Shown: positions 2,094-22,766 of the stretch, one piece after another
Position numbering within the stretch: the first letter of the stretch is position 1
How the letters are laid out: each line of letters starts with the position of its first letter
Origin: Thermococcus argininiproducens
Lineage (GTDB): Archaea > Methanobacteriota_B > Thermococci > Thermococcales > Thermococcaceae
Reading direction: 5' to 3'
Length of the DNA stretch: 32,000 nt
NCBI RefSeq assembly: GCF_023746595.1
Contig: NZ_CP080572.1
Location: 985,890-1,017,889 of the forward strand
Translations under genes and position numbers: made by a program
The notes under the pieces: model-generated
Database searches by the model: none
What the model saw: the letters and a program-made list of their open reading frames with translations, nothing else
Told to the model about the DNA's origin: nothing

Positions 2094-3419
2094 TTACTCA
2101 GCGAAAGTGAGTATTTTGAGATTTATTGGCCTTCTAACAACGTTACTTTTCCTGGCGCCTACTAAATATTTAACACCTTTCTCACTAACTACATCAATAA
2201 GCCGCTGAGTTATTATTCCATTGAAAATTATTGCATATACATTTTCTTTATCGTTCAATGAACTTGAAAGGTCTCTTACTGGTATTTCTGCAATGATATT
2301 TTTATTTTCATCTAGTAAGATTGCCTTTGAGTCCTTTTTCACTTCCTCAACCCACTGGTTAAATTTATCAATTTCTGGAGGTTTTGATATTTTTATTGGT
2401 TTTATAAATCTCTCTTCTCTCTTTTCCTCCCTTTCAGGGGCTCGAATCTCGACTTTTGGAGCTTCTGAGTGAATTTCTGTAGGCACTTCAGGTTTATTTT
2501 CAACTGGAGCTTCTATTTTTTCAACGGGAGCAACCTTTTGCTGTTCCCTCTCTTTTACGAGTTCGTAAAAGCTTTTACCCTTTGCAAATAGTTCATTGAT
2601 CACTTGTTCTGCTGGAACTTTGCTCCTTAAGGATTTAATTATCTCCTTCTTGGTTAGCTCTTCAACTTCTTTTCCTTCTGGGGCCCTAGCGACGTAGTCA
2701 ATATCTGCCACTTGAAGAAGTTCTTTGAGTATTAGTTCCCCACCTCTATCTCCATCAGTAAAAGCTGTAACAATCCTTTCTTTGCTGAGTCGTATTATAG
2801 TTTCTGGAATTGAAGTACCTTCAACGGCTATAGCGTTCTTTATCCCATGTTTGAGGAGGTTAAGCACATCGGCTCTTCCTTCAACAACAATTATTGAATC
2901 TGAGAATGGTACATGAGGTCCTGCAGGGAGTTTTTCTGAACCATATTCAATGAGTTCCTTAGCCCGTACCTCTTTTTTGACCTCTTCAGTAATCTCTTGA
3001 GTCTCTGGGATTTCCTCTTCCATAAGAGTCTCCAGAATCTCTTTGGCTCTTTCGATAATGTACTTTCTCTTTGTTGCTCTAACATCTTCAATTCTCATTA
3101 CTTTGATTCTAGCCTCTGATGGTCCTATTCTGTCTATAGTTTCTAAGGCAGCTGCTAAAATCGCAGTTTCTACTCTATCTAGACTGGAGGGAATTGTTAT
3201 ACTTCCATAACTTTTTCCAGCTCTCGTATGAACATCAACTTTTATTCTTCCAATTCTTCCAGTTTTTTGCAGTTCTCTTAGATCCAAATCATCCCCGAGT
3301 AAGCCTTCAGTTTGTCCAAAAATAGCACCAACAACATCTGGTCGTTCGACAATCCCACTTGCTTCAAATTCTGCGTGGATTACATACTTTGTTGTTCCAA
3401 AATCATCCTTCGCAGCCAT
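2094..3419 (-). CDS. dnaG: Archaeal DnaG primase-like protein (Toprim domain; exosome-associated)
   Basis: MAAKDDFGTTKYVIHAEFEASGIVERPDVVGAIFGQTEGLLGDDLDLRELQKTGRIGRI is the conserved archaeal DnaG N-terminus. The Toprim region is IIVVEGRADVLNL...FTDGDRGGELI. I prefer the ATG at 3419 because AAGGAGATAGAAGGTGATAGC lies directly upstream. The track start at 3575 would overlap the upstream gene. Confidence 0.9.
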   Translation of the reverse strand: MAAKDDFGTTKYVIHAEFEASGIVERPDVVGAIFGQTEGLLGDDLDLRELQKTGRIGRIKVDVHTRAGKSYGSITIPSSLDRVETAILAAALETIDRIGPSEARIKVMRIEDVRATKRKYIIERAKEILETLMEEEIPETQEITEEVKKEVRAKELIEYGSEKLPAGPHVPFSDSIIVVEGRADVLNLLKHGIKNAIAVEGTSIPETIIRLSKERIVTAFTDGDRGGELILKELLQVADIDYVARAPEGKEVEELTKKEIIKSLRSKVPAEQVINELFAKGKSFYELVKEREQQKVAPVEKIEAPVENKPEVPTEIHSEAPKVEIRAPEREEKREERFIKPIKISKPPEIDKFNQWVEEVKKDSKAILLDENKNIIAEIPVRDLSSSLNDKENVYAIIFNGIITQRLIDVVSEKGVKYLVGARKSNVVRRPINLKILTFAE

Positions 3420-3525
3420 GCTATCACCTTCTATCTCCTTCTTTTTTAACATTCTTTGCTTATCAAGCAAAATCTGCTGGATTGTAGTCTTCTTTCTCTT
3501 CAATCCATACCCCTCCTGTTGGGGG

Positions 3526-3906
3526 TCAGAAACGGAGATTTTCAGCCCGTAAATATAGGCCATATAGGTCTTCAATACCTTTAATGTATTTTTTTGCTAT
3601 TTTTTTGAACTCTTTTCTTGTTTCGACATCGACTCTACATTTGTACCCTTCTAAATATTGAGCTAATTTCTTTGCCAGTTCTTCACCCTTTCTGTCAAAG
3701 TCCGTTAATATCATTATATCATGATAATGAGAGGCTGTTAGTGCAATCTCCGCTAATGGCAAGCGGGAAAGTTTAATTATCTCCGTTTCGACCCCCAATT
3801 TTCGTAAAGCCACCTCGTCTCGCATTCCTTCTACCAGGATAACACCATCAAACTCTCGCAATTTATCTATAAGTTGTTTGAGTCTTTTATAATTTTCGGC
3901 GTTCAT
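3526..3906 (-). CDS. Small Toprim-domain protein (COG1658/UPF0292-like, small primase-like)
   Basis: GVILVEGMRDEVALRKLG...IMILTDFDRKGEELAKKL carries the Toprim E and DxD motifs. The ATG at 3906 (MNAENYKRL) is preferred over the 23-codon upstream extension. Confidence 0.8.
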   Translation of the reverse strand: MNAENYKRLKQLIDKLREFDGVILVEGMRDEVALRKLGVETEIIKLSRLPLAEIALTASHYHDIMILTDFDRKGEELAKKLAQYLEGYKCRVDVETRKEFKKIAKKYIKGIEDLYGLYLRAENLRF

Positions 3907-4187
3907 TTTGCCGTCATGAGGAGTGAGAGACAAAGGTATTATAAAGTTTTGGGAAACATTTGTGGTAAATCCCAATCACTTTGCTCAAAATTTTACTGTC
4001 TTTAATGAATTGTATGTAAAAAATCAATTACACTTCTCATAGTGTATTTTTAATAATATTAAGAGTAGCAGAATTGCATAATCATACATTCTAAATAAAA
4101 TTGTTATGTAGAAAAAGAGCAACTAACAGTGATAAGAAAAATTTATATAGATCGTCGACTTTTTTATAAAAAGAAGAGGTGGTTAAA

Positions 4188-5186: not shown

Positions 5187-5507
5187 TCACTTTCTTCCCT
5201 CCATTCTCTTGTATTTTTCTAGCAGTGTGATTATCATGTCCATAACTTCTAAGTATTTTCTTAACTCATTAACATCATTGGGAAGGGTGTTTGCTAACAT
5301 GTTCAGTTTCTGTATCAGATTTTCCTCAACACTTTTTAATTCGACTTCTCCATGCTTTTTCCTCTGCTCACAAACAGGGCAGAATACCTTCCCATTTAGT
5401 TCAAATAGTGGGGAGCCACATCTGGGGCAGTGTTTATCAAGCATCTTTGCTCCTGAAAGTAAGAGAGGTGTTATTATTTCTCTAATTTCCTTATCACTGA
5501 GTACCAT
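5187..5507 (-). CDS. Zn-ribbon protein, UPF0148 / Sjogren autoantigen p27-like family
   Basis: MVLSDKEIREIITPLLLSGAKMLDKHCPRCGSPLFELNGKVFCPVCE contains a CPxC...CPxC ribbon. The ATG at 5507 overlaps the upstream gene's stop (5494-5496). Confidence 0.75.
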   Translation of the reverse strand: MVLSDKEIREIITPLLLSGAKMLDKHCPRCGSPLFELNGKVFCPVCEQRKKHGEVELKSVEENLIQKLNMLANTLPNDVNELRKYLEVMDMIITLLEKYKRMEGRK

Positions 5508-6237
5508 CTTCCTCCCCCATAAGAGTTGTATAAAGTTCAATTAGGGCTTTCTTTCCTAGTTTAGATCTCTTTATTCTGTCTGAAACCTCAGCAATATCGC
5601 ATGCAATTATTTTGAAATTCTTTTTAATCTCTTCTATAATATCAATCAATTCATCTAATGTTAGTTCTCCATGTTGGAACCTAGCGAGTTTGTATTCTGG
5701 TTTTAAAACATCCATATCAACGGTTAGGTATATTTCGTCTCCTAGGTATTTTTTCATATCTTTGATGATTTCTTTGAGAGGGGAAGTTCTTAAACTTTTA
5801 TATGCTCTCCATGTCCCTCTTACACGTCTGCTCCTTGGGAGAGCTGGAAATATCCTAACTCGCCGTGTCCATAAGCTTGTCCCCTCAGTTGTGGGAATCA
5901 TTAACACTGGCCCAACTATACTTGCCCTATCAATTAGTCGCTCTTCTAAGCTATAAGCAAGCCATGAGCCATGGTCAAGGTAGTCATGCATTAAGTCAGT
6001 ATGAGCATCGACACTTATCAATGCTCGTGGTTTAACACGTTTAATTATTCCATAAGTGGCTAAGTGATCTCCTACTATGTAGCATTTGTCGAACGGCAGT
6101 CTATCGGCTAAGAGTTCAACATTACTTGATTCGACCACCATGAAATCTTGTATTATCTTATTTTTTCTAAGTAATTCAAGGGCATATATGACTCCATCTC
6201 TATTTGGTTTTTCTCCAAAAGGAATGAAAGTGACCAT
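5494..6237 (-). CDS. Short arginase/agmatinase-fold (ureohydrolase family) protein
   Basis: Ureohydrolase-like motifs are present: VGDHLA, SVDAHTDL and LTVDMDVLKPE. The protein is only about 247 aa. The ATG at 6237 is preferred; a GTG at 6246 is also possible. Confidence 0.7.
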   Translation of the reverse strand: MVTFIPFGEKPNRDGVIYALELLRKNKIIQDFMVVESSNVELLADRLPFDKCYIVGDHLATYGIIKRVKPRALISVDAHTDLMHDYLDHGSWLAYSLEERLIDRASIVGPVLMIPTTEGTSLWTRRVRIFPALPRSRRVRGTWRAYKSLRTSPLKEIIKDMKKYLGDEIYLTVDMDVLKPEYKLARFQHGELTLDELIDIIEEIKKNFKIIACDIAEVSDRIKRSKLGKKALIELYTTLMGEEDGTQ

Positions 6238-6267
6238 ATTTCTCACGTGAGGCTATTTTGGGCTTAT

Positions 6268-6283: not shown

Positions 6284-6370
6284 GGAGAGAGTGATTAATG
6301 GTGAAGGGGTTAAAGTTAAAAGTAACCCTCTTGATGTTAAGTTTGAGGATCATTGGGGAGGTACGTTAAG

Positions 6371-7591
6371 ATGATCTTACAAGTGGCACTTGACTTAACG
6401 GATATAGAACAAGCTATTTCTATAGCAGAAAAAGCAGCTCGTGGTGGGGCTCATTGGCTCGAGGTTGGAACACCACTCATAAAGAAGGAAGGCATGAGAG
6501 CAGTAGAACTCATGAAAAGAAGGTTCCCTGATAGAAAAATAGTAGCTGACCTGAAGACTATGGATACAGGGGCACTTGAAGTAGAAATGGCGGCTAGACA
6601 TGGGGCAGATGTCGTCTCGATACTTGGAGTTGCTGACAACAAAACCATAAAAGACGCAGTTACCGTAGGTAGAAAGTATGGAATAAAGGTAATGGTGGAC
6701 TTAATCGGAGTTAAGGACAAGGTAGAAAGGGCAAAAGAACTTGAAAAGATGGGAGTTCACTATATTCTTGTTCATACAGGAATAGATGAACAAGCTCAAG
6801 GAAAAGATCCACTTGAAGATCTAGAAAAAGTTGTAAAGGCAGTAAAAGTCCCGGTTGCTGTGGCCGGCGGGTTAAATTTAGAGACAATCCCTACGGTTAT
6901 AGAAGCCGGTGCTACCATTATCATAGTTGGAGGAGCAATAACAAAGACGAAAGATCCTGAAGGTATTACCAAGAAGATACTTGACCTCTTCTGGGGTGAA
7001 TACATGCAAACGATTAGAAAGGCGATTCACGATATCACAGACCATATCGACATGGTAGCTGATTCTTTAAAACTGGATCAAGTCAGGGGAATGGTAGATG
7101 CAATGATTGGGGCAAATAAAATATTTATTTATGGCGCTGGGAGAAGTGGTCTAGTAGGAAAAGCCTTTGCAATGAGGTTAATGCACCTTGACTTTGACGT
7201 TTATGTTGTAGGTGAAACAATAACTCCTGCGTTTGGTGAAGGAGATCTCCTTATAGCAATCAGTGGGAGTGGTGAAACCAGAACTATAGTAGATGCAGCA
7301 GAGATTGCTAAAAAACAAGGGGGAAAAGTTGTAGCAATAACATCATATAAGGATTCAACTCTTGGAAAGCTTTCTGATGTGGTTGTGGAAATACCAGGAA
7401 GGACAAAAGCAGATATCCCCACTGACTACATTGCTAGGCAAATGCTCACAGAGTATAAGTGGATAGCCCCAATGGGAACACTTTTTGAAGATTCAACAAT
7501 GCTGTTTTTAGATGGGATAATAGCCCTATTGATGGCCACTTTCCAAAAGACAGAAAAGGATATGAAGAGAAAACATGCTACATTAGAGTGA
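6371..7591 (+). CDS. hps-phi: Bifunctional 3-hexulose-6-phosphate synthase / 6-phospho-3-hexuloisomerase (Hps-Phi fusion, RuMP pathway)
   Basis: The N-terminal half is MILQVALDL...WLEVGTPLIKKEG...VADLKTMDTG...ILVHTGIDEQ (Hps/OMPDC-like barrel). The C-terminal half is IFIYGAGRSGLVGKAFAMRLMHL...LLIAISGSGET (SIS domain, Phi). This fusion is known in Thermococcales. ATG at 6371 follows GGGGAGGT. Confidence 0.92.
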   Translation: MILQVALDLTDIEQAISIAEKAARGGAHWLEVGTPLIKKEGMRAVELMKRRFPDRKIVADLKTMDTGALEVEMAARHGADVVSILGVADNKTIKDAVTVGRKYGIKVMVDLIGVKDKVERAKELEKMGVHYILVHTGIDEQAQGKDPLEDLEKVVKAVKVPVAVAGGLNLETIPTVIEAGATIIIVGGAITKTKDPEGITKKILDLFWGEYMQTIRKAIHDITDHIDMVADSLKLDQVRGMVDAMIGANKIFIYGAGRSGLVGKAFAMRLMHLDFDVYVVGETITPAFGEGDLLIAISGSGETRTIVDAAEIAKKQGGKVVAITSYKDSTLGKLSDVVVEIPGRTKADIPTDYIARQMLTEYKWIAPMGTLFEDSTMLFLDGIIALLMATFQKTEKDMKRKHATLE

Positions 7592-8352
7592 TTCGTATGC
7601 CTTCATTTCCTCATATTTTTATTGGGATCGGGAACAATGGTAATAGAGTTGTCCAAAATATTGGAATAGAAGAAGTTCTAAAGTTCTCCATAAACCCCTC
7701 TTATTATTTATTGGGGAAATCCTCATTCAAGAAGAAAATCAGGAAGACCTTCTGGGACATTCCAGATAATGCAGTTCTATGGATTGTGTTAGAAAATAAG
7801 CCAATAAATATTGAGATATTAGAGATTATTCTTGATTATCTGCCTAAAAATCCATTAAAACTTGCGTACATCTTGACCCCTCAAAAAGAGCTGGTACATG
7901 AAAAGAAACCGTGGTGGGCCCAGGAATTCGATACAGTATTCTATGATTCTCTATGGGAATTCTTACATGATTACACAGATGTTTCACTAGAAACGGCCTT
8001 TCAAATGGCAGCAAAAAATATTGGACTTATGTTCACTAGGCTTCATTACTATCTTGAAAACCAAATGTTAGTAAATGTTGATTATGCTGACTTCTTTAAC
8101 ATAGTTAGGGGCAATAATGTAGGGATCCTACGGTTGCTAACTAAAGTTAACTTTGAGTGGCATTGGGGAATCTGGGATAAAGGCTTGATAAACATTCTTG
8201 TAGGAGAAAATGTTCCCTTAAGCGATGCACATAAAATACTTTATAATTTTCAGAATTTCCTGAAAGAAAAAGACATAATCTGGGGAATAAAAATGGAAGA
8301 GGGCTTAAACAGCCGCGTTGAGATACTTTCTCTCTTAGTTAAGAGGTGGTAG
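7588..8352 (+). CDS. Degenerate FtsZ/tubulin-fold protein (T3/T4 glycine loops apparently absent, T7-like NVDYAD retained)
   Basis: Segments match FtsZ in order: IFIGIGNNGNRVV vs VVGxGGxGxN; SINPSYYLL vs AINTDAQQL; LVNVDYADFFNIV vs LINVDFADVKAVM; DIIWGIKMEEGLNSRVEILSLLV vs TIIWGATIDENL..VRVLLVITG. Start is either the GTG at 7588 (GTGA overlap with the hps-phi stop) or the ATG at 7597. Confidence 0.6.
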   Translation: MIRMPSFPHIFIGIGNNGNRVVQNIGIEEVLKFSINPSYYLLGKSSFKKKIRKTFWDIPDNAVLWIVLENKPINIEILEIILDYLPKNPLKLAYILTPQKELVHEKKPWWAQEFDTVFYDSLWEFLHDYTDVSLETAFQMAAKNIGLMFTRLHYYLENQMLVNVDYADFFNIVRGNNVGILRLLTKVNFEWHWGIWDKGLINILVGENVPLSDAHKILYNFQNFLKEKDIIWGIKMEEGLNSRVEILSLLVKRW

Positions 8353-8353: not shown

Positions 8354-9001
8354 ATGAGAGCTATCTTTTTTGACATAGATGGAACTCTCTTAACAGAAAA
8401 ACCTCTCATTATGCTATTTCTTCCACAGGTATATGATACACTCTCAAAAAAACTTGGAATATCCAAAGGTGACGCTCGACTAAAATTTCTTAGAGAAATC
8501 GCAGAAAGAAAAAATACTTACGAATGGCATGATTGGAATTTTTTCTTTAAGAGCTTTGGACTTGAGTTTAGGTATGAAGAGTTGATAAAGAGTTATCCCC
8601 ACAAAATTCAGGTGTTTCCGGATGTAATCCCAACTTTGGAGTGGTTAAAAGAAGAGGGATATAAGTTAGGGGTAATAACTAGTGGTCCAGAGTATCAGAA
8701 ATTGAAACTCAGGATAACAAAACTTGACATGTACTTCGATGTTATTGTAACAAGAGAAGATGTAAAAACTGTGAAGCCTGATCCTAGAATATTTTTATAT
8801 GGGTGTGAGAAGTTGGGAATAGAACCGAGAGAAGCTGTAATGATAGGAGATGACTTAAATCAGGATGTATATGGCCCTAGAAATGTTGGTATGATGGCTA
8901 TCTGGATAAATCGTGAAGGCATAGAGGATTATAATTTTGCTACCATTGAAATTAGGAGCCTTCATCAGCTTAGAAGTATACTGGGGGGATTTAGAAAATG
9001 A
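8354..9001 (+). CDS. HAD-superfamily hydrolase, subfamily IA
   Basis: HAD motifs I to IV are present: FFDIDGTL, VITSG, K(P)D and MIGDDLNQDV. The ATG comes 1 nt after the preceding stop, and GAGGTGG lies upstream. Confidence 0.85.
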   Translation: MRAIFFDIDGTLLTEKPLIMLFLPQVYDTLSKKLGISKGDARLKFLREIAERKNTYEWHDWNFFFKSFGLEFRYEELIKSYPHKIQVFPDVIPTLEWLKEEGYKLGVITSGPEYQKLKLRITKLDMYFDVIVTREDVKTVKPDPRIFLYGCEKLGIEPREAVMIGDDLNQDVYGPRNVGMMAIWINREGIEDYNFATIEIRSLHQLRSILGGFRK

Positions 9002-9177
9002 GGGAGATATTCAATAAGGAAGGGATTTTCATAAAATTTGAAGAAAAGCTAGTGAAACTGGAGAATGGGGATGAGTTGGTGCATAGGCAAGAACGTCCTA
9101 CTAATCTATGGTGGGAACTTAAAGAGGTCATAAAGGGAAAAAAGGTCAAAATAATTGTATATGAGCTTGGGGAATGA
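8998..9177 (+). CDS. Small 59-aa protein, not in the supplied ORF track (below its length cut-off)
   Basis: My own translation is MREIFNKEGIFIKFEEKLVKLENGDELVHRQERPTNLWWELKEVIKGKKVKIIVYELGE. The ATG (8998) overlaps the HAD stop as ATGA. Its TGA (9175-9177) lies 3 nt before the next ATG. A G-run at 8983-8988 could serve as the RBS, and the composition resembles the neighbouring genes. Confidence 0.6.
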   Translation: MREIFNKEGIFIKFEEKLVKLENGDELVHRQERPTNLWWELKEVIKGKKVKIIVYELGE

Positions 9178-9180: not shown

Positions 9181-9990
9181 ATGATTGCACATCTAATCAA
9201 CACTGATATCTATGGAAGGGACATTTTGGAAGTTTATTTGGAATATCGAAAGCAAAACTTCAATTTTTTAGAGGATGCTAAAGATCTCTTTTTAAAAAAC
9301 CTAGATAATGTTCTCATTGTGACATGTTTTCCAATACCTCCAATGCAAATAGTAGAAACTGACGGTCCACCTGGTGCTTTGGCCCTATATAAGGCAATTG
9401 AAAAACTTGGAGGGAAGGCGGAGATATTAACGTGTGAAAAAATAAGAAGAGCCCTCAACGAGTTTAAAGTTAATTTTGCAGAGAATCCTTCAGTTGAAGA
9501 GTACTCTCTTTTGATAAGTGTTGAAACCCCTGGACGGGCAAAGGATGGAAGATATTATTCGATGAGTGCATTAGAAATTAAAATGCCGCCTTTTGATGAA
9601 TTATTTTTGAAAGCGAGAGAGCTTGGGATACCTACCATTGGAATTGGGGACGGAGGAAATGAGATAGGAATGGGAAATATTGCCGAACTCATTAAGAAGT
9701 ACATCAGGTTTGGAGAGAAAATAACTAGTATTATAGAAGTTGATGAATTAATACTTGCTGCAGTTTCCAATTGGGGTGCGTATGGGTTAATTGCTCAAGT
9801 TTCTCTTGAAGTTAAGGAGAATCTCTTGAAAAATTGGGATGAAAGAAGAGTTCTGGAGGCTCTAATTTCTGCAGGGGTTATAGATGGGGTTGTTAAAAAA
9901 CCTCAGCTTAGCGTTGATGGAATTCCACTTGAACTTCATAAGAATCTCATAACCTTGCTTAATTCGATAATAGAAAGTAGAATTGGGTGA
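9181..9990 (+). CDS. DUF4392 / D-glutamate-cyclase-like family protein (function unknown in archaea)
   Basis: VETDGPPGALAL and GIGDGGNEIGMGN match the motifs I associate with DUF4392. The gene itself is a clear 269-aa ORF in operon context. The family call is from memory only. Confidence 0.55.
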   Translation: MIAHLINTDIYGRDILEVYLEYRKQNFNFLEDAKDLFLKNLDNVLIVTCFPIPPMQIVETDGPPGALALYKAIEKLGGKAEILTCEKIRRALNEFKVNFAENPSVEEYSLLISVETPGRAKDGRYYSMSALEIKMPPFDELFLKARELGIPTIGIGDGGNEIGMGNIAELIKKYIRFGEKITSIIEVDELILAAVSNWGAYGLIAQVSLEVKENLLKNWDERRVLEALISAGVIDGVVKKPQLSVDGIPLELHKNLITLLNSIIESRIG

Positions 9991-9995
9991 GTACG

Positions 9996-10610
9996 ATGAA
10001 AATCGAGGAGTATATTCATAATAATGCTAGTTTGGAGCTTATACGAAAAGCAGAGCAATTTGCTAAAAATTTCTTTGAAAGAGAGGGGACTCATGGATTT
10101 TCTCATATTAAACGAGTTTTTAATCTTTGTTTACATTTAGGAAAGGATGAAGGGGCTGATCTTGAAGTTCTAGCTTTAGCAGCATTGCTTCATGATATTG
10201 CACGGCCTTTGGAAGACAAGGGAATTGTGGATGATCATGCAAAAGAAAGTGCAAAAATTGCCCGTCGCTTTTTGGGTTCTCTTGGATATCCCAAGATAGA
10301 GGAAGTAGTTCATGCAATCGAAGCTCACCGGTTCTCAAAACCTCCGGAACCAAAAACCATTGAGGCAAAAATACTAAGCGATGCGGATAAACTTGATGCC
10401 ATAGGTGCAATCGGAGTTGCAAGAGTATTCATGTATTCGGGAGAGCATGGGAGAGATATAGAATTCTCATTAAAGCACTTTGAAGAGAAAATATTGAAAC
10501 TTAAAGATTTGATGTATACCAAAAGTGCAAAGAAGCTTGCTAACGAAAGACATAAGTTCGTGGAGGAATTTATTAAAAGAATACAGAAGGAAATTGAAGG
10601 AGAGCTTTAG
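9996..10610 (+). CDS. HD-domain metal-dependent phosphohydrolase
   Basis: The HD motif is present: H..H (FSHIKRV), LLHDIARP, HAIEAH and SDADKLDAIG. Start is the ATG at 9996 or the GTG at 9987, which overlaps the upstream stop as GTGA. Confidence 0.85.
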   Translation: MKIEEYIHNNASLELIRKAEQFAKNFFEREGTHGFSHIKRVFNLCLHLGKDEGADLEVLALAALLHDIARPLEDKGIVDDHAKESAKIARRFLGSLGYPKIEEVVHAIEAHRFSKPPEPKTIEAKILSDADKLDAIGAIGVARVFMYSGEHGRDIEFSLKHFEEKILKLKDLMYTKSAKKLANERHKFVEEFIKRIQKEIEGEL

Positions 10611-11298: not shown

Positions 11299-12615
11299 AT
11301 GTATAGGACACACTATTCAAGTCAAATCACTGAAGAGTTGAATGGGAAAAAGGTAAGAATAGCCGGATGGGTACATGAAGTTAAGGATCTAGGTGGAATA
11401 AAGTTTCTATGGATACGAGACAGAGAGGGCATAACCCAAGTCGCTGCACCAAAAAAGAAAGTATCTGAAGAGCTATTTAAACTTATACCAAAGCTCAATA
11501 GTGAAGATGTAGTTTCGGTTGAAGGAGTTGTTAACTTCACTCCAAAAGCAAAATTGGGTTTTGAAATTATTCCTGAAAAAATTGAGATTCTGTCAAAAGC
11601 CGGGACACCACTCCCATTAGACCCAACTGGAAAGATTAAAGCTGAATTGGATACTAGGCTTGATAATCGTTTTATAGATCTAAGAAGGCCAGAAGTCATG
11701 GCAATATTCAAAATCCGTTCAAGTGTCTTTAGAGCAGTTAGAGACTTCTTTTATAAGGAAGGCTTTGTAGAAATTCACACTCCCAAAATAATAGCTACAG
11801 CTACAGAGGGTGGAACTGAACTCTTTCCTATGAAATATTTTGAGAAGGATGCTTTTTTGGCCCAGTCTCCGCAGCTTTACAAACAAATTATGATGGCTTC
11901 AGGGTTGGACAGAGTCTTTGAAATAGCCCCAATATTTAGAGCTGAGGAACACAATACTACTAGACACCTAAATGAGGCTTGGAGTATTGATGGAGAAATG
12001 GCGTTTATAGAGAACGAAGATGAAGTGATGCAGCTTCTTGAACGCCTCGTAGCATATGTAATTGGTTATGTGAGAGAGCATAATGAGAGGGAACTAAGAG
12101 CCCTTGATTTTGAACTTGAAGAACCAAAGCTTCCTTTCAGAAGGATTACTTATACTGAAGCTCTTGAAATCCTAAGAGAGTTAGGAAAAGACATTCCTTG
12201 GGGAGAAGATATAGACACTGAAGGGGAGAAACTTCTTGGTCGTTATATTAAAGAAGCCTATGATGAAGACCTCTATTTCATATATCAATATCCTAGTAGT
12301 GCCAAGCCTTTCTATATTATGAAATATGACAATAAGCCAGAGATCTCAAGATCATTCGACCTTGAGTATAGGGGGATAGAGATAACCTCTGGTGGTCAGA
12401 GAGAACACAGATATGATAAACTAAAGGCTCAAATAGCAGAAAAAGGGCTGAATGTGGAAAGCTTTGACTTTTACTTAAAAGCATTCCGTTATGGCATGCC
12501 GCCGCATGGAGGGTTTGGTCTCGGTGCTGAGAGATTGGTCAAGCAAATGCTTGACTTGGGCAATATCCGAGAAGTCATACTATTCCCAAGGGACAGAAAA
12601 AGGTTGGAACCATAA
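11299..12615 (+). CDS. aspS: Aspartate--tRNA ligase, archaeal type
   Basis: The protein is 438 aa. The N-terminal OB fold is [26 protein letters not shown]. Class II motifs are [14 protein letters not shown] and [10 protein letters not shown], with the QSPQLYKQ signature. Confidence 0.95.
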
Positions 12616-12676
12616 GAGCTTTATATTCTTTTACCTTTTTATGAATTTAGGAAACAAGTTGGTGGAGGAGAAAAAG

Positions 12677-14728
12677 ATGAAAAAATTGCCTCTGATTATG
12701 ATGGGGTTGCTGATTTTTTCACTTGTGCCTTATGTGGAATCAGCTAGTGTTGGAAAAGCTAGCATTGATCAAGTAATGCTCGGTTTGGGAGAATCAGTGA
12801 CTTTTGGTGATTATAAGATTCAATTTGCAGATGTAGATCAGGCATGGACTCAAGCACTAATAAAGGTTTATGCTAAAGATGGGAGTCCTGTCACGAGTAA
12901 AGTGCTCCCCACTGGGTACTCTCTTCCAGTACCCGATGCTCAAAATCCAATATTTTATGTCAGGGTTTCGTGGATATTAGCAAGCAATCAAAAAATTTTG
13001 ATATCCTTAGAATCAGATCTGGAGTTAGTCCAAGGGGATGTAAATATTACCAAAAATGGGGAGTATTCCCTGCCTTATAAGTTCAATGATGTAGTAATTC
13101 CAGCTATAAAAATAAAAGTGACCAACACTTATGACAATAAGGTAGATGTTCAAATTAAATTGCCTTATGAAACTGTAACTCAAACTATTTTTGAAGGAGA
13201 CTATTATGGCGTCGCTTACAAGTTAAATGGTGATTTTCAATACTCTCCGTACCTATATCTTTACCTCAAAAACGCAACTACAAGTTATGCAGTTTTTGAT
13301 GTGTATCTTCCAAAATATCCAACTACAGTTTTCCAATTGGGTGAAGGGGAGACTGGTGGTACTACGCCAAGTGCCCCAAGTGCAGAGCCGACTGAACTTG
13401 TTTATAATGACATAATGTACGAAGGGGAAAATCTCACAATAACTCTTAATGAGACTAGTTACACAGTGAAGCTTAATTCGGTTGGATATTATTCTAGCTT
13501 TTCCGTTTTTGAGCAAAACAACGAGATAGCAACATTTAGGGTGAAAGAGGGGAAAAGTTATCAGCTTTCAGAAGCACCACTTAGAATAGAAATTCCACTC
13601 CATAGTGTTGACTTGGAATACAATAGGGTTCAAGTAAAGATTTATGCTCCCCAAGGCTCAGAGGTTTCACCGATAATTAGAGAAGCAGAAATAAAAGCTG
13701 AGTTAAGTGTTAGTACAGAAAAACTTCTACTAAACGATGAATTAGTCCTCTTTGTTAATATTAGGAATCAAGGGCGAGGAAAGGCTTTTGATGTTAAGAT
13801 CGTTGTTCCAATTCCCACGGGGTTTGAACTTAAAAGTAGTAGAACATGGAATCTTAAAACACTTGAACCATTTACTGAGGTACCAGCATTATTTTACACC
13901 TTAAAGCCAATACAAGTTGGCACATATAAGATGGGACCAGCAAGTGTAACTTATTACAAAGAAGATGGGCAAGAGGAGAGTATAATTTCAAATACGATTG
14001 ATCAAGTTGTTGTTTACGCAATTCCAAAGCTTTCTGTAACAGGAGAGGCCTTCAACGGTACATGGAGCACTTATGTCCATACCCAAGAGAAAACCGTCAA
14101 ATTAAAATTCACGATCTCTGCAGAGGGTAAAGATCCGAAGTATGAGTTCATTAAAAATGCAACCCTGCAACTAGAGCTTCCTGATAGTATGGATGGAGAG
14201 ACAAAACTATACGTTGGTGATATTAAAGCTGGTGAAACAAAGACTCTTGAAAGTGATTATGCAATACTAAAAGCAGACAATGCCATAATAAATGCGAAAC
14301 TAGTTTATCAAGACCCTCTGGGGAATTGGCACGAGGAGAGCTTTGGAAATCTAGTTGTAGTAAACTCACTTCCACCAGCAATTGAGATTAAGGAAGTAAA
14401 GGTGTATCCCGCCCCAGATGAACTCCCATCCTATGTGAACAGAACTCTCGCCGAATTGGATAATGATAGTAAGGTCACGCTGGCAGAAGCTCTCCAGAAT
14501 ATTACCATTGCATACTTACCAGAAAAGGGTATCAGCTGGTGGCCAATCCTTACAGTTCTCTTCATTATAGTTTCAGCGGTTCTAGGATACAATTATGTTG
14601 ACTTGAAGTCAAAATATGATAAAGCTCTCAAAGAACTTGGAAGAAAGAAGAGGAGACCTGGAGGAATTCCAAAGAAAGAGGAAGCTCAAAAAACTGAAGA
14701 AATCCAGAGTAAAGAAGAACAACTTTGA
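12677..14728 (+). CDS. Predicted cell-surface glycoprotein: signal peptide, beta-sandwich (CARDB/DUF11-like) region, C-terminal TM anchor
   Basis: The ATG at 12677 follows GGTGGAGGAG. The signal peptide is MKKLPLIMMGLLIFSLVPYVESA. The CARDB/DUF11-like segment is LVLFVNIRNQGRGKAFDVKIVVPIPTGFEL. The C-terminal TM is WWPILTVLFIIVSAVLGYNYV, followed by a K/R/E tail. There are nine N-x-S/T sequons. The track start at 12491 lies inside aspS and is rejected. Confidence 0.8.
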   Translation: MKKLPLIMMGLLIFSLVPYVESASVGKASIDQVMLGLGESVTFGDYKIQFADVDQAWTQALIKVYAKDGSPVTSKVLPTGYSLPVPDAQNPIFYVRVSWILASNQKILISLESDLELVQGDVNITKNGEYSLPYKFNDVVIPAIKIKVTNTYDNKVDVQIKLPYETVTQTIFEGDYYGVAYKLNGDFQYSPYLYLYLKNATTSYAVFDVYLPKYPTTVFQLGEGETGGTTPSAPSAEPTELVYNDIMYEGENLTITLNETSYTVKLNSVGYYSSFSVFEQNNEIATFRVKEGKSYQLSEAPLRIEIPLHSVDLEYNRVQVKIYAPQGSEVSPIIREAEIKAELSVSTEKLLLNDELVLFVNIRNQGRGKAFDVKIVVPIPTGFELKSSRTWNLKTLEPFTEVPALFYTLKPIQVGTYKMGPASVTYYKEDGQEESIISNTIDQVVVYAIPKLSVTGEAFNGTWSTYVHTQEKTVKLKFTISAEGKDPKYEFIKNATLQLELPDSMDGETKLYVGDIKAGETKTLESDYAILKADNAIINAKLVYQDPLGNWHEESFGNLVVVNSLPPAIEIKEVKVYPAPDELPSYVNRTLAELDNDSKVTLAEALQNITIAYLPEKGISWWPILTVLFIIVSAVLGYNYVDLKSKYDKALKELGRKKRRPGGIPKKEEAQKTEEIQSKEEQL

Positions 14729-16428: not shown

Positions 16429-17145
16429 ATGGTTAAGGCAATCTCGGTAGATATAGACGGAACGATAACGTACCCAGATAGGAGATTACATGAAAAAGCT
16501 GTTGAAGCCATAAGACTAGCAGAGACTCTTGGGGTACCTGTTATGCTCGTCACTGGGAATAGTGCATGTTTTGCTTATGCTACAAGCATTTTAATTGGCA
16601 CGACTGGCCCATTTATTGCTGAAGATGGGGGAGTGATAGGGGACAGGAAAAATAATCGTATTTTTCTTGGGGACATGGGTGATTCGATGATTTTGTGGAG
16701 TGAACTGAAAAAACGTTATCCTAATGCTGAAATGAGTGATACGATGAAATATGGAGAAAGACGGGCAGGTCTTGTAATAAAGAGAACGGTACCTGTAGAA
16801 GTCGTTAGGGCCATTATAGGGGACTTGAATTTAGATCTCATAGCTGTGGACAGTGGATATGCTATTCATGTAAAACAGCCCCATGTAAATAAAGGAGAGG
16901 GAATAAAGAAAGCATGTCAAAGTTTGGGCATAACTCCAAAAGAAGTCGCACATATTGGTGATGGAGAAAATGATCTTGATGCTTTCAGGGTTGTAGGGTA
17001 TAAAGTTGCAGTGGCCCAGGCTCCAGAGAGTCTTAAAAAGAAAGCAGATTATGTCACAAATAAATCTTATGGGGAAGGAGGAGCAGAAGGTATTTTGCAT
17101 ATTTTGAAAAAGTTTGGATATTTGGAGGACTATTACCCTAAGTAG
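16429..17145 (+). CDS. Phosphoglycolate phosphatase-type HAD hydrolase (subfamily IIB, archaeal)
   Basis: [16 protein letters not shown] and [11 protein letters not shown] form the HAD IIB (Cof-like) pattern typical of archaeal PGPase. Confidence 0.8.
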
Positions 17146-17894
17146 TATTTGTTTAGAATCTCTCTGAATTCTTCTGCGGTGTTTCTAACATTTTCTGCAA
17201 ATATTATTGCTCTTGACACGTTTACTAAGATGTCTCTCCCCTTTAATTCTTCAAGGATTTTTGGGTTTCCTCCCTGTGTTCCAATTCCAGGAATTAGCCA
17301 TGGGAGAGTCCCACTTTCGTGGGAAACTTTTTTTATGTAATCCTCTTTTGTAGCACCAACAACAATTCCCACTTTTTTGGGATAGGTGCGTTCAAGCTCT
17401 TTTGAAAGTTCAAGCACTCTTGGATATACAGATATTTCGAGCTCATGTGCAGACTCATTACTAGTTAAGAGAAGAATGAACACATGTCCTTTTTCTAAAA
17501 ATGGAATTATGGCATCTCGTCCCATGTAGGGATTTACAGTTACAGAGTCTACTTTTAGTTTGTCGAAATAAGCCTCTGCATAGGCTTTTGCAGTATTTCC
17601 TATGTCTCCCCGCTTGGCGTCCAGAATTATTGGAACTTTTGTATCTTGTTTTATTAGTTCTACTGTTTCTTCTAAGGCTTTGTATCCTCTCCAACCAAGT
17701 TTTTCATAGAAAGCAATGTTTATTTTGTATGCACATACGAGATCTGCGGTTTCTTTTATAACATGCTCATTGAATTCTGTAATATTCCTGAATTTTTTGG
17801 GAATCCTGTCTATATCACTATCCAAACCTACTACAAGGATAGAATTGTTCTTATCTCTAGCTTTTCTGTATTTCTCAAGAAACACTGAATCCAC
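17133..17894 (-). CDS. pyrF: Orotidine 5'-phosphate decarboxylase, long (type 2-like) form
   Basis: ILVVGLDS and [16 protein letters not shown] are present, and the protein is about 250 aa. No ATG start is available. The choice is between the GTG at 17894 and the GTG at 17885, which lies 5 nt after GAGGTGG. Confidence 0.85.
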
Positions 17895-18804
17895 CTCTGT
17901 GGGCTATTCCAATTATGTCCCTAAATCTTTTTATCTTTTTCCGCTTGAGAAATGCTTCAATCCCACTTAAGATTGTTGTAGGGCTCTGTGGATCTACCAT
18001 TACAGCCGTTCCTATTCCTAAAAGTGATGCTCCTGCCATAGCATATTCGAGAGCATCTTGCCAGTCCATAATTCCGCCTATACCTATTATTGGTATATCC
18101 AATACCTCACTCGTTTTAAATACTCTTGCAAGGGTTATTGGTTTTATAGCTGGCCCACCTAAGCCTCCTGTTTTAAGTTTGAGTACTGGTAAGCCAGTTT
18201 CAACATTTATTCTCATGGCTTGAATACCATTTCCAATAGTTAATCCATCTGCTCCTGCCTCTGCAGCCGCTTTTGCAATCTCTATTATATCTGTGACATC
18301 TGGAGCAAGTTTGACTATTATTGGCTTATTTGTTAACTCTCTGGCAGTTTTCACGACTTTTTGTGTAAGTTTCACGTCTTCTGCCCAACGTCTCTTTCCC
18401 TTGATATTAGGACAGGAAAGATTAAGTTCGATGAGTGGTATTTCTTTTATCTTGTCCATCTCTTCTACTAGGAGTTGCCATTCCTCAAGACTGAATCCAG
18501 CTATACTACCAATCTTTATGGTATTAAGCTTATTGAGTTCGGGCACGATTTCTGTGATAAATCCTTTAATACCTGGGTTTTGGAGTCCTATGGAATTTAT
18601 GATTCCTCCATACGCATCTACGAGTCGTGGAGGTGGATTTCCCTCTCTAGCTTTCACTGTAATCGTCTTTAGGGTTATTGCACCAACTTTTGAGAAGTCT
18701 AAGTACGGTTGGAGCTCAAAACCAAACCCTGCAGGCCCAGAGGCCAGCACTATTGGGTTTTTAAACTGTATTCCGAATACTTCAATGCTTAAATCCACTC
18801 CCAT
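17875..18804 (-). CDS. pyrD: Dihydroorotate dehydrogenase 1B, catalytic subunit
   Basis: MGVDLSIEVFGIQFKNPIVLASGPAGFG...NSIGLQNPG...LNLSCPN...GGI is typical of PyrD. The ATG at 18804 is preceded by GAAAGGAGGAGATAAC. The track start at 18903 is rejected. Confidence 0.92.
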   Translation of the reverse strand: MGVDLSIEVFGIQFKNPIVLASGPAGFGFELQPYLDFSKVGAITLKTITVKAREGNPPPRLVDAYGGIINSIGLQNPGIKGFITEIVPELNKLNTIKIGSIAGFSLEEWQLLVEEMDKIKEIPLIELNLSCPNIKGKRRWAEDVKLTQKVVKTARELTNKPIIVKLAPDVTDIIEIAKAAAEAGADGLTIGNGIQAMRINVETGLPVLKLKTGGLGGPAIKPITLARVFKTSEVLDIPIIGIGGIMDWQDALEYAMAGASLLGIGTAVMVDPQSPTTILSGIEAFLKRKKIKRFRDIIGIAHRGGFSVS

Positions 18805-19526
18805 GTTATCTCCTCCTTTCTGAATAAGGGGCCATCTTTGCAGACGAGCTTCACACCCTCTATAGTCTTCAGGGCACAGCTCTTGCACGTTCCAACCCCA
18901 CATCCCATTACAGCTTCAAGAGATACATACGCATTTTTAGGCAAGTTTTTTAGCATTGGAATAGGACCGCATGCTATTATTCCAACTTCCTCTGAAATTA
19001 GCTCGTTAAGAGCATCTACAACAGTATGTCCGCTTTCTTCCTCTATTACGAGATGTTTCTGTTCATTTTCATTAAAGAGTTTTCTTATATGTGCTTCTTT
19101 GAATCCATATAACTTTGTATATGTTAGCTCTGGATGTAGTTCAGAAAAGAAGTTTAGTGGGGAAATTCCACTTCCTCCTCCAACCAGAATGTACCGTTTC
19201 GTTAAATCTATTGAGCTAATGTAGGGATTTCCATGAGGTCCTCTTACATAGAAAATTTCTCCAATAGGACTTGAAAATATTCTCCCTGTTAGTCTTCCAA
19301 CGCGCTTTATGAACAATACGAGTTCTCTATTCTTATATGAGTATATGGAGAATGGTTTCGCTAAAATTGGCTCGTCTGGAGCTTTAAGCATTACAAATTG
19401 CCCTGCATCTGGGTTTTCTATCTTTTCCTGAAGTTTGAAAATAAAAAATCCATAGTCGCCACTTATTCTCTTTTTCTTAAGTTCAGCTTCAATCAATCCT
19501 ATCCCCCCTGTACACAATTTTGCCAT
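18789..19526 (-). CDS. pyrK: Dihydroorotate dehydrogenase 1B, electron-transfer (FAD/2Fe-2S) subunit
   Basis: KPFSI (FAD binding), GGGSGISP, and the C-terminal cluster CGPIPM...MGCGVGTCKSCALK...VCKDGPLF are present. The ATG at 19526 overlaps the pyrC end by 38 nt. A TTG at 19496 is an alternative start. Confidence 0.88.
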   Translation of the reverse strand: MAKLCTGGIGLIEAELKKKRISGDYGFFIFKLQEKIENPDAGQFVMLKAPDEPILAKPFSIYSYKNRELVLFIKRVGRLTGRIFSSPIGEIFYVRGPHGNPYISSIDLTKRYILVGGGSGISPLNFFSELHPELTYTKLYGFKEAHIRKLFNENEQKHLVIEEESGHTVVDALNELISEEVGIIACGPIPMLKNLPKNAYVSLEAVMGCGVGTCKSCALKTIEGVKLVCKDGPLFRKEEITWEWI

Positions 19527-20754
19527 TTTTAATCGTTAATTCAATAACTCCTGGAAGGGTTTTGTTTAAAAATGGTGTATTTTTACCTTTTGAAAAGAGA
19601 GTCTCTTCATTAACCCTCCATGTTTTGCTTGGATCGAGTATCACAACATCTCCGGAATATCCGGGGATAATGTCTCCTTTAAGACCCAAGTTGAAAAGTT
19701 GGGCTGGTTTCCAAGTAACTTTCTCCAAAAGAACCTTGAAGGGGATTTCGTATTTCTCGGCTATAATGAAAAGTGAAGAGAGGAGGGTCTCGATACCACT
19801 TATTCCAAATGGGGCCTCTTCTATGTTTGTAGATTTTTCTTCTTTTGAATAAGGTGCGTGATCAGTAACTATTATATCAATTGTACCATCTAAGAGGCCC
19901 TTTATAAGCTCTTCTTGATCTTCTTTTCTTGGAAGTGGAGGATTAACTTTTTTAAAAGGAGATCGGTCTCTTAAATCCTCATCAGTAAAAAGTAGATGGT
20001 GATGAGTTACCTCGGCTGTTACTGGCACTCCTCTTTTCTTCGCGTCTCTTAGAATTTTGACAGAAGCACTTGTAGATAAGTGTTGGACATGGATGTGAGC
20101 TCCAGTATAACGAGCAATCTCAATATCCCTTGCAACAGCTATTGATTCAGCAATATCTGGGATTCCACTTATCCCGTAAGCCCTTGAGAATTTACCTTCC
20201 CTTATACTTCCCCCAGATAATTCTGTTATCTCTGCATGGTCAGCAATTGGCTTCCCTACGGCTCTTGCAAGCTGCGCTGCCTTGAGAAACACTTTAAAAC
20301 TCTGGGGGGTTGTTCCATCATCGCTAAATGCAACTACGTGTGGAGCTAGGGTTTTAAAATCTACAAGATCTTTTCCATATCTCTTTTTTGTTATTGCTCC
20401 TACTGGGAGAATATCGATAAGCCCCACTTGTTGGGCTCGTTTTTTTACATAATTAATGCTTTCAATACTATCTAGCGGAGGATTCGTGTTTGGCATTATT
20501 GCCACAGTAGTAACTCCCCCGTGGACAGCAGCTTTTGAGCCACTTTCTATAGTCTCCCTATGTTCATAACCTGGTTCTCTGAAATGAGCGTGCATGTCTA
20601 TTAAGCCAGGAATCACGAGTTTGTCTCCTGCATCTATAAACTCTCCTCTTTCTTTAGGCTTATCGTGCTGGACTTTTTTGATTATTCCATTTTTTATCAC
20701 AATGTATCCTTTTCCTTGATAGCTGTGAGATAGTATCTCGCCTCTAATTATCAT
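19489..20754 (-). CDS. pyrC: Dihydroorotase (long, bacterial-type class I)
   Basis: The metal-binding motif is GLIDMHAHFREPG. It continues ...ADHAE...HVQHLST...VTDHAP. The protein is 421 aa. Confidence 0.92.
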   Translation of the reverse strand: MIIRGEILSHSYQGKGYIVIKNGIIKKVQHDKPKERGEFIDAGDKLVIPGLIDMHAHFREPGYEHRETIESGSKAAVHGGVTTVAIMPNTNPPLDSIESINYVKKRAQQVGLIDILPVGAITKKRYGKDLVDFKTLAPHVVAFSDDGTTPQSFKVFLKAAQLARAVGKPIADHAEITELSGGSIREGKFSRAYGISGIPDIAESIAVARDIEIARYTGAHIHVQHLSTSASVKILRDAKKRGVPVTAEVTHHHLLFTDEDLRDRSPFKKVNPPLPRKEDQEELIKGLLDGTIDIIVTDHAPYSKEEKSTNIEEAPFGISGIETLLSSLFIIAEKYEIPFKVLLEKVTWKPAQLFNLGLKGDIIPGYSGDVVILDPSKTWRVNEETLFSKGKNTPFLNKTLPGVIELTIKNGKIVYRGDRID

Positions 20755-20763
20755 GTTTAGTCC

Positions 20764-22170
<1,407 letters not shown>

Positions 22171-22211
22171 TTTTTTGTTAACATATTTTTGGAAATGTAG
22201 GGGTGGTTTAC

Positions 22212-22766
22212 ATGGAACTGTCAAAAGAAAAGGATCTTTTGATTGACCTGATCTTCAAAGAGGGTGCTATTGAATTTGGAAACTTTGTTCTTAGCTCAGG
22301 AAAACAAAGCAACTATTATATTAATATTAAAAAACTTATAACAAATCCTCAAGCCTTAAAGATAATTGCTTCTCTTATAAAAGCTAAAGCAGAGAGTTTT
22401 AGTCTTGAGTATGACAAAATAGCAGGTCCAGAACTTGGGGCAGTCCCCATTGCAGTTTCATTGGCTTTAATAACTGATAAACCTCTTTTAATAGTACGTA
22501 AAAAGAAGAAGGATTACGGAACGGGAAAGCAAGTTGAGGGAGATGTAAAAAGAGGGGATAGGGTCCTTCTTGTAGAGGATGTTACAACAACTGGGGGGAG
22601 TGTACTTAGAGCAGCTAAGATTTTGGAGATGGAGGGTGCTAATATAGTGGCTATCATTGTGGTTGTTGATCGGGAGGAAGGTGCCAAGCAAACTCTGGAA
22701 AAAGAAGGTTACATGTTAATTCCCTTGGTAACAGTTGGAGAGCTCTTTAAATATAGAGAAAAGTGA
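22212..22766 (+). CDS. pyrE: Orotate phosphoribosyltransferase
   Basis: [17 protein letters not shown] is present, with the PRPP-binding loop [13 protein letters not shown]. The ATG at 22212 is 6 nt after GGGGTGG. Confidence 0.93.

Follow-up and report, generated by a model that had tools for sequence, protein, structure and literature searches.

The window analysed here is a stretch of 32,000 nucleotides from Thermococcus argininiproducens, and its subject is a single forward-strand gene, labelled X in the following, whose product is derived from the cell division protein FtsZ. An earlier reading of the bare sequence (the original prediction) had proposed that this product is an FtsZ/tubulin-fold protein lacking the GTP-binding loops while keeping a T7-like loop. 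The gene and the elements of its product are given below with their coordinates in the window, with residues numbered from the methionine of the ATG at 7597 and with the basis of each assignment in brackets. Strands, helices and loops are abbreviated S, H and T, and AF2 stands for AlphaFold2.

7597..8352 (+): gene X, FtsZ-derived protein of 251 amino acids (open reading frame; orthologue starts; FtsZ fold)
7624..7641 (+): T1 remnant GIGNNG, residues 10-15, family pattern GxGxxG (column mapping)
7735..7746 (+): deletion of 26 residues between residues 48 and 49, comprising S3, T3 (GxGxGG) and the start of H3 (near-global hhalign)
7786..7809 (+): T4 site, 8-residue deletion leaving L-ENKPIN, residues 64-71, no glycine (hhalign, mapping)
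7876..7962 (+): remodelled T5-H5-S6-T6, residues 94-122, TPQKELVHEKKPWWAQEFDTVFYDSLWEF (family alignment, mapping)
7987..8061 (+): core helix H7, residues 131-155 (AF2 model, mapping)
8065..8094 (+): T7 loop and start of H8, MLVNVDYADF, residues 157-166, NxDxxD (alignment of 34 orthologues)
8152..8184 (+): tryptophan-rich loop FEWHWGIWDKG, residues 186-196, in place of H9 (alignment, hhalign, model)
8272..8286 (+): S9 motif DIIWG, residues 226-230, where archaeal FtsZ has IIWG (profile alignment, mapping)

A longer version of the open reading frame (7588..8352, +) starts with the GTG at 7588 and encodes 254 amino acids. The ATG at 7597 is the likely start of X, since the orthologues, which are 245-262 amino acids long, begin with the methionine corresponding to it and since a Shine-Dalgarno-like element, GAGTGA, is located 5 nucleotides upstream. 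The database holds a protein 100% identical to X, K1720_05255, labelled 'hypothetical protein'. X is a functional protein-coding gene under strong purifying selection: none of the 34 related loci has a disrupted reading frame, the gene being partial in two of them because the contig ends there, and the divergence from its closest relatives (L006 and L007) amounts to 0.09 at nonsynonymous sites (pN) compared to 0.74 at synonymous sites (pS), the latter being saturated so that ratios of the pN/pS type are upper-level estimates only. The family alignment used for the profile and for the counts of invariant residues consists of 34 X orthologues with pairwise identities of 47-80% and contains 46 invariant residues.

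Standard domain models do not recognise X as a member of the tubulin superfamily. In Pfam no family matched X at E <= 1, the thresholds of PF00091 (Tubulin) and PF12327 (FtsZ_C) were not reached, and none of the 61 clusters of X homologues carries a precomputed Pfam domain. The NCBIfam model for FtsZ, TIGR00065, scores 15.4 bits against X at a cut-off of 295.2 and covers only the C-terminal 48 residues. Compared as a single sequence to the PDB, X finds Methanocaldococcus jannaschii FtsZ in three collinear pieces, which coincide with matches made by eye in the original prediction, at a non-significant E of about 0.9. With the 34-sequence profile searched against all PDB sequences, M. jannaschii FtsZ was retrieved at E = 9.2e-7, again in three collinear segments, followed at weaker scores by many bacterial FtsZs and one CetZ. 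Profile-profile alignment by hhalign of the X family to an alignment of seven true FtsZ proteins resulted in a probability of 98.3% (E about 1e-14) for the local alignment spanning H7-S10, and of 98.4% (E about 1e-14) for the near-global alignment spanning residues 1-250. The profile check proposed for the original prediction therefore had a divided outcome, blank for the Pfam Tubulin and FtsZ_C models and positive for the family profile (E = 9.2e-7) and for hhalign (98%). In an exhaustive HMMER profile scan of 1.84 billion representative proteins, one full-length X cluster (at 50%-identity clustering) and fragments were found, and the matches farther away were mostly true FtsZ; among ten of these remoter matches examined with Pfam, nine carry FtsZ/tubulin domains and one is an ankyrin-repeat protein. 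No family intermediate between X and FtsZ was found among the 1.84 billion proteins.

The predicted structure leads to the same assignment. The AF2 model of X has a mean predicted local distance difference test score (pLDDT) of 86.5 and a predicted template modelling score (pTM) of 0.87, and in a Foldseek search against the PDB all of the top 50 matches are FtsZ structures (probability 1.00, E about 4e-12, query TM-score 0.65-0.72), the FtsZ fold thus being found by the structural check that had been suggested. The elements follow each other in the order S1-H1-S2-..-S6-H6-H7-T7-H8-S7-S8-H10-S9-S10, with S3 and H9 absent, and in the model the N-domain is Rossmann-like, H7 forms the core helix, and the C-terminal domain contains four beta strands. 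The five segments that had been matched to FtsZ by eye are all recovered by HMMER against M. jannaschii FtsZ, and in collinear order: IFIGIGNNGN of X pairs with VVGCGGAGNN, SINPS with AINTD, ETAFQMAAKNI with LKLAFKVADEVL, LVNVDYADF with LINVDFADV, and DIIWGIKMEEGL..VEIL with IIWGATIDENL..VRVL. Profile search, profile-profile alignment, Foldseek on the model and column mapping agree, and the predicted FtsZ/tubulin fold of X is on these sequence and model comparisons secure. X is a Thermococcus/Pyrococcus-specific FtsZ paralogue that kept the two-domain fold and is shortened to 251 residues.

What X has lost is concentrated in the nucleotide pocket. In T1 the FtsZ pattern GGGGxN is changed to GxGxxG with G10, G12 and G15 kept, and across the orthologues the fourth FtsZ glycine is retained in 26% and the FtsZ-invariant asparagine in 6%. 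In T2, NTD is replaced by N-P-[A/S/G] in the X family. The absence of T3, originally estimated at about 30 residues, is borne out by hhalign as a loss of 26 residues that takes out S3, T3 and the beginning of H3; the N-domain sheet in the AF2 model accordingly has five strands compared to six in FtsZ. For T4 the original claim is confirmed and can be made more exact: the tubulin signature [SAG]GGTG[SAT]G is not present in X, and the residues ENKP, which had been placed at its position, align to the residues after the signature, so that the change is more precisely described as an 8-residue deletion. Here the FtsZ signature GxGGGTGT is deleted, E66 and N71 are nearly invariant within the family pattern E-[D/N]-K-P-x-N, and in the model S4 (residues 60-66) is joined to H4 (residues 69-80) by two residues. 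Between residues 41 and 142, X has not a single glycine, which means that a glycine-rich T3 or T4 cannot be recovered by any alignment, and column mapping, as the alignment check on the two loops, finds both of them deleted.

Further contacts to the nucleotide are affected as well. T5 retains the proline and the glutamate; T6 reads Y-D-S-L and has no asparagine, the asparagine column being occupied by leucine with the invariant D117-S118 adjoining. In H7, A134 and F/Y135 are kept and the guanine-contacting aspartate is replaced by Ser/Ala/Thr at position 139. Only five of the 26 FtsZ-invariant columns of the N-domain are retained in X, and 11 of the 26 fall inside the T3 and T4 deletions. Because T2, T3, T4, T6 and the H7 aspartate are deleted or replaced, canonical GTP binding by X is, as a strong inference from sequence and model, very unlikely. 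The replacement of T2, of the T6 asparagine and of the H7 aspartate, together with the loss of H9 and of the C-terminal linker and tail, goes beyond the losses that had been described before.

The opposite face of the protein shows a different picture. N160, D162, A164 and D165, which represent all four FtsZ-invariant columns of T7, are invariant in 34 of 34 orthologues, so that the T7-like loop proposed originally, with its NxDxxD, is a fixed property of the family. From H7 onward six of the 11 FtsZ-invariant columns are kept in X, including the four in T7. Family conservation is 0.79 for T7-H8 and 0.88 for S7 compared to 0.64 for the whole protein, and the segments of X most similar to FtsZ are S9 and T7, the S9 motif lying within the segment where the consensus identity to FtsZ peaks. 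There is consequently an asymmetry with respect to the longitudinal interface of FtsZ: the acceptor half, which carries the nucleotide, was removed, whereas in the donor half (H7-T7-H8 and S7-S10), whose elements form the bottom face of FtsZ, X is most FtsZ-like and belongs to the most conserved parts of its family.

Two parts of X have been remodelled. In the T5-T6 region, 11 residues in 29 positions are invariant (P95, E98, L99, P105, W107, F111, T113, F115, Y116, D117 and S118), and the conservation of S5-T5 and of H5-S6-T6 within the X family is 0.73-0.77 compared to 0.64 overall, i.e., comparable to T7. The remodelled top face is conserved to the same degree as T7 and does not give the impression of a dead surface, and the pattern of invariant residues suggests that it probably binds something. 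In place of H9, for which hhalign finds a 16-residue deletion relative to FtsZ and the model shows no helix between S7 and S8, X carries the tryptophan-rich loop with the invariant residues W188, W190, G191, W193 and G196 (W-x-W-G-x-W). The FtsZ C-terminal tail tethers FtsZ to membrane anchors; X ends directly after S10 and is without a C-terminal linker or tail.

The 61 clusters of X homologues (at 90% identity) belong without exception to Thermococcus, Pyrococcus or unclassified metagenome-assembled genomes (MAGs) of Thermococci/Thermococcaceae. Neither the homologue search nor the exhaustive profile scan found an X protein in Palaeococcus, which is why X is regarded as specific to Thermococcus and Pyrococcus. 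Most orthologues are labelled 'hypothetical protein'. The Thermococcus gammatolerans EJ3 orthologue bears the label 'Conserved hypothetical protein, ftsZ GTPase-related', two RefSeq entries are called 'FtsZ/tubulin family protein' and two JGI calls read 'cell division GTPase FtsZ'. Literature searches found no description of the X family, of its T7-retaining loop losses or of its operon; those directed at inactivated FtsZ paralogues of Thermococci or at pseudo-GTPase FtsZ-like proteins likewise did not lead to the X family, and for the locus tags PF0221, PH1937, TK0476, TK0474 and TON_0337 nothing was found. A literature match to PF0219 was rejected as an unrelated paralogue discussion. This agrees with the earlier statement that no characterised archaeal protein of this kind was known, apart from the few database labels that hint at the kinship to FtsZ.

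Thermococcales genomes were recorded to contain three canonical tubulin-family genes, FtsZ1, FtsZ2 and CetZ (supplement of PMC9856176). For T. gammatolerans EJ3 and Thermococcus AM4, the same survey counted one further tubulin-family protein, called 'highly divergent', and treated it as strain-specific (PMC9856176), whereas X occurs throughout Thermococcus and Pyrococcus. Because the EJ3 orthologue of X is annotated as ftsZ GTPase-related, this extra protein, for which the survey gives a count and no accession, may be X. If the two are the same, the survey missed the wide distribution of the protein beyond these strains. What is new is thus the family of nucleotide-pocket-less, T7-retaining FtsZ paralogues, and what was already known are the scattered FtsZ-related labels.

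The genes that accompany X were compared across the 34 related loci, 33 of which extend past X. In the window of T. argininiproducens they are the following.

6353..7591 (+): hxlAB, bifunctional 3-hexulose-6-phosphate synthase / 6-phospho-3-hexuloisomerase (NF041755; Pfam OMPdecase and SIS)
8354..9001 (+): HAD-family phosphatase (Pfam HAD_2; PDB 4ygq, E = 4e-100)
8998..9177 (+): open reading frame of 59 amino acids (ATG overlaps the HAD stop codon)
9181..9990 (+): TON_0340 orthologue, DUF4392 / D-glutamate-cyclase-like C-terminal domain (PF14336; PDB 4fc5/4dwz, E about 1e-113)
9987..10610 (+): HD-domain phosphohydrolase, start overlapping the stop codon of the TON_0340-like gene (Pfam HD)

The order hxlAB, X, HAD phosphatase, 59-amino-acid reading frame and TON_0340-like gene is conserved and, as the proposed check of synteny and distribution revealed, recurs across the Thermococcus and Pyrococcus loci. 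HxlAB scores 545.7 bits against NF041755 (cut-off 500); its orthologues have 406 amino acids and begin with MILQVALD, so that its true start is probably the ATG at 6371 rather than the TTG at 6353 from which the listed reading frame has 412 amino acids. It is found 5' of X in every related locus whose upstream side is visible. The HAD gene starts 1 nucleotide after the stop codon of X in T. argininiproducens and follows X directly in 33 of 33 loci, the junction always being tight, from an overlap of 7-23 nucleotides up to a gap of about 25 nucleotides. The small reading frame is present in 32 of the 33 loci extending past X, the exception being a contig that ends inside the HAD gene. It matched no Pfam or NCBIfam family, seven homologues were found, all in Thermococcus, and the AF2 model, a beta-hairpin plus a helix of mediocre quality (pLDDT 76.6, pTM 0.48), gave no significant match in Foldseek. 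Four related loci have no TON_0340-like gene, two of them clearly running beyond the small reading frame, and the HD gene is missing or inverted in several. For Thermococcus onnurineus, TON_0340 was described as a weak Mn-dependent phosphatase whose physiological substrate is unknown (PMC5132392).

In the window the genes from X through HD overlap or are 0-4 nucleotides apart. The spacer between hxlAB and X amounts to 5 nucleotides here, up to about 190 nucleotides in a deep-branching Thermococci MAG (L035) and about 840 nucleotides in a Thermococcus MAG (L030). In the former, the 190-nucleotide spacer (3811-4000) contains a TATA-like sequence, TTTTTTAT, about 25 nucleotides 5' of the start of X, suggesting that X may there be transcribed from a promoter of its own with a leader of very small length. 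In the latter, a gene for a histidine-phosphatase/phosphoglycerate-mutase-like protein of 233 amino acids with an LLRHGES motif lies at 3201-3902 between hxlAB and X; it is another phospho-transfer enzyme recruited to the X locus. Since the X-HAD junction is always tight and the hxlAB-X spacer is variable, the stable unit is X, HAD, the small reading frame and the TON_0340-like gene beside hxlAB. Of the translational coupling to a pentose-synthesis enzyme that had been proposed, the adjacency to hxlAB thus holds wherever it is visible, but the close spacing does not, as it ranges from 5 to about 840 nucleotides.

The 120 best homologues of TON_0340 that were listed all belong to Thermococcales, and the only informative locus outside the X-bearing ones is that of Palaeococcus pacificus (L036, 6001-6813), where the gene is flanked by a methyltransferase and HD and has no hxlAB, X, HAD or small reading frame beside it. 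The pairing of TON_0340 with HD therefore looks like the older linkage. In one MAG (Thermococcus sp. S013_metabat2_scaf2bin.004), two complete hxlAB-X-HAD-small-TON_0340 loci are located on different contigs (L019 and L021), for which a mixed bin is a more likely explanation than a true duplication.

The rest of the window contains no division genes and no second FtsZ; it holds genes of pyrimidine biosynthesis, tRNA modification and transporters. A cluster for pyrimidine biosynthesis (17133-22766) lies about 9 kb 3' of X and comprises a pyrF-like gene, pyrD, a pyrK-like gene, a dihydroorotase-like amidohydrolase, pyrI, pyrB and a phosphoribosyltransferase. Neighbourhoods of cetZ were likewise described to include nucleotide-biosynthesis genes (Brown and Duggin, 2023, PMC9856176). 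Upstream of hxlAB and in divergent orientation, most loci conserve an arginase-fold protein (5494-6246, -), which with 48 bits stays far below the agmatinase/arginase equivalog cut-offs of 174-302 and is a divergent member of its family. A reading frame of 745 amino acids (12491-14728, +) has no Pfam match and, as listed, shares about 125 nucleotides with the 3' end of the aspartyl-tRNA synthetase gene, for which reason its real start is probably further downstream; the gene at the corresponding position of L005 has only faint matches to TRAP_beta, CLIPPER and BatD. A tRNA-Gly(CCC) (24906-24983, +) is the sole Rfam/ARAGORN match in the window.

For the function of X, we favour a model in which it is a 'half-site' pseudo-subunit whose T7 face would act on the GTP face of FtsZ1, FtsZ2 or CetZ as a capper or as a GTPase activator, and to which we assign a probability of roughly 0.38. 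In FtsZ, the T7 aspartates do not act within the subunit that carries them but complete the GTPase site of the one below it. Because X keeps these aspartates strictly without having a pocket of its own, the insertion of its T7 loop into the GTP site of another protein is the simplest explanation. In such a mechanism the bottom face of X would dock on the GTP-bearing top face of FtsZ1, FtsZ2 or CetZ in the same cell, and D162 and D165 would enter the active site of the partner, thereby completing it and stimulating GTP hydrolysis. As the top face of X is without nucleotide, T3 and T4, no further FtsZ subunit would stack on it, and the result would be either a capped nucleotide-exposing, i.e., shrinking, filament end or a non-polymerising heterodimer of X and FtsZ. 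The remodelled top face and the tryptophan-rich loop would be left free for another partner, e.g., the product of the HAD, 59-amino-acid or TON_0340-like gene, by which the filament system might be linked to the metabolic state reported by the X operon. In FtsZ filaments, subunits join at the T7-exposing end and depart from the nucleotide-exposing end, and X would accordingly sit on the shrinking end. Such capping could either stabilise or destabilise the filaments.

This model is supported by the kept bottom face, the lost pocket, the functionality of the gene and the candidate partners recorded in Thermococcales. Several observations weigh against it. The T5-T6 top face is as conserved as T7, fitting a new site for a ligand or partner better than a mere dead cap. 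X is fixed in a phosphatase-type operon; genes for the synthesis of pentoses and pyrimidines lie close by, and division genes are absent. Moreover, the H9 deletion and the new tryptophan-rich loop may alter the surfaces around the bottom face, and the invariance of NxDxxD could serve another purpose, e.g., metal binding or self-association. Palaeococcus has CetZ and a TON_0340 homologue and no detectable X, so that X is not a core division component. A further complication is that X would cap the shrinking end, opposite to the group of MipZ, MinC and MciZ. The proposed functional reading as pseudo-subunit is plausible, with one serious rival.

This rival, which we consider somewhat less likely than the pseudo-subunit, is that X has been exapted as a metabolic or scaffold subunit that no longer contacts FtsZ-type proteins and instead regulates or scaffolds the HAD phosphatase, the 59-amino-acid protein and the TON_0340-like Mn enzyme, its Rossmann-like N-domain (GxGxxG together with the conserved acidic and polar residues E66, N71, E98, E102, K104, D117 and S118) binding a small phosphorylated metabolite or a protein partner. 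It would account for the recurring order of X, HAD, small reading frame and TON_0340-like gene with X and HAD overlapping or within about 25 nucleotides, and for the high conservation of the T5-T6 face; the TATA-like box in L035 and the inserted gene in L030 suggest that X heads the unit, and X, HAD and the TON_0340-like protein diverge at similar rates (identities across the related loci of 48-83%, 51-85% and 52-82%, respectively). It leaves unexplained, however, why the catalytic NxDxxD of FtsZ and its flanks are invariant whereas the rest of X drifted to about 15-20% identity. Furthermore, the Palaeococcus homologue of TON_0340 works without X, HAD or the small reading frame adjoining it, and no described tubulin-fold enzyme subunit was found. 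The exapted scaffold and the half-site pseudo-subunit are compatible with each other, in that X might serve as an adaptor connecting filaments with operon products.

It is improbable that X forms nucleotide-dependent filaments, i.e., that a non-canonical pocket made of the T1 GxGxxG, the H7 F/Y and the T5 glutamate binds GTP or another nucleotide and that X polymerises with itself, its own T7 acting on the next X subunit, into a minimal cytoskeletal filament. The three glycines of T1, the stacking aromatic residue of H7 and the proline and glutamate of T5 are retained, and both top and bottom faces are conserved as expected for the interface of a homopolymer, but the loops that hold the phosphates, T3 and T4, are physically deleted, and T2, T6 and the guanine-specific aspartate are replaced. 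To our knowledge, there is no tubulin-superfamily GTPase without the T4 signature, which counts against a filament former of this kind. That X is a decaying FtsZ relic or that its resemblance is due to chance, for which the missing Pfam Tubulin and FtsZ_C matches and the single-sequence E of about 0.9 could be quoted, is extremely improbable, as 46 residues are invariant among sequences 47-80% identical and as the matches by profile, by profile-profile alignment and by structure are without exception significant and collinear, and a pseudogene or chance resemblance was discarded on the 34 intact loci, the pN of 0.09 compared to a pS of 0.74, and the profile and Foldseek matches.

If the half-site model is taken to its full extent, X might be the tubulin superfamily's first half-site member to occur in nature: a nucleotide-free T7 donor to FtsZ1, FtsZ2 or CetZ that would cap the shrinking end and bind the co-encoded phosphatase module with its top face, and would thereby couple division or cell shape in Thermococcus and Pyrococcus to the metabolism of pentoses and nucleotide precursors. 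This combined claim is a long shot. Independent of it, X adds to FtsZ1, FtsZ2 and CetZ a fourth, widely conserved tubulin family in Thermococcus and Pyrococcus that was overlooked by the domain databases, and it represents a natural separation-of-function variant with the acceptor half lost and the donor (T7) half kept. It makes testable how the ends of archaeal FtsZ and CetZ filaments are regulated and whether pseudo-GTPases of the tubulin fold act as activators or cappers; an archaeal FtsZ end-regulator was not found in the literature searches. If instead the scaffold explanation is true, X would exemplify the rare recruitment of a cytoskeletal fold to an enzyme module and might help to find the substrate of the widely conserved TON_0340 / DGLUCY-C family. 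Thermococcus kodakarensis and Pyrococcus furiosus are genetically tractable and should, by their genus membership, carry X orthologues, and the proteins are thermostable and easily purified.

Among the known systems, archaeal FtsZ1, represented by M. jannaschii FtsZ (PDB 1fsz / 1w58), is the closest to X in structure. It shares the fold and the order of elements, is the best profile match and belongs to the best structural matches, and its T7 sequence L-[VI]-N-V-D-[YF]-A-D and S9 sequence IIWG are nearly identical in X. In contrast to FtsZ1, X is about 110 residues shorter and is without S3-T3, the T4 signature and H9; its T2, T6 and H7 aspartate are replaced, and it has neither an N-terminal H0 nor a C-terminal linker or tail. 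The closest functional precedent is ARC3 of plant chloroplasts, which contains an FtsZ-like domain and was shown to directly inhibit Z-ring assembly and to enhance the GTPase activity of FtsZ2 (PMC12232670 and its reference 49). Similar to what is proposed for X, an FtsZ-derived domain from which the ring itself is not built acts here on true FtsZ. This is a functional analogy only, since ARC3 is not orthologous to X and has an independent origin; it is eukaryotic, carries a middle domain and MORN and is regulated by ARC6/PARC6, whereas X has no extra domains. CetZ resembles X in being an additional tubulin-family paralogue of Euryarchaeota, but a full GTP pocket and polymerisation are features of CetZ, and the CetZ structure PDB 3zid matches the X profile far more weakly, at E = 0.079.

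MipZ, MinC and MciZ all attach to the T7/H10 face, the growing end of FtsZ. Their regulation of FtsZ works through the occupation of a longitudinal polymerisation interface, as is proposed for X, yet they are unrelated to FtsZ in fold, while X carries the T7 face itself and would bind the nucleotide-bearing face. Finally, in alpha/beta-tubulin the nucleotide site of one partner receives its catalytic T7 residue from the other, and the two sites are not equivalent. The proposed heterodimer of X with a true FtsZ would share this division of labour, with the difference that both tubulins bind GTP, whereas X appears to be without a nucleotide site.

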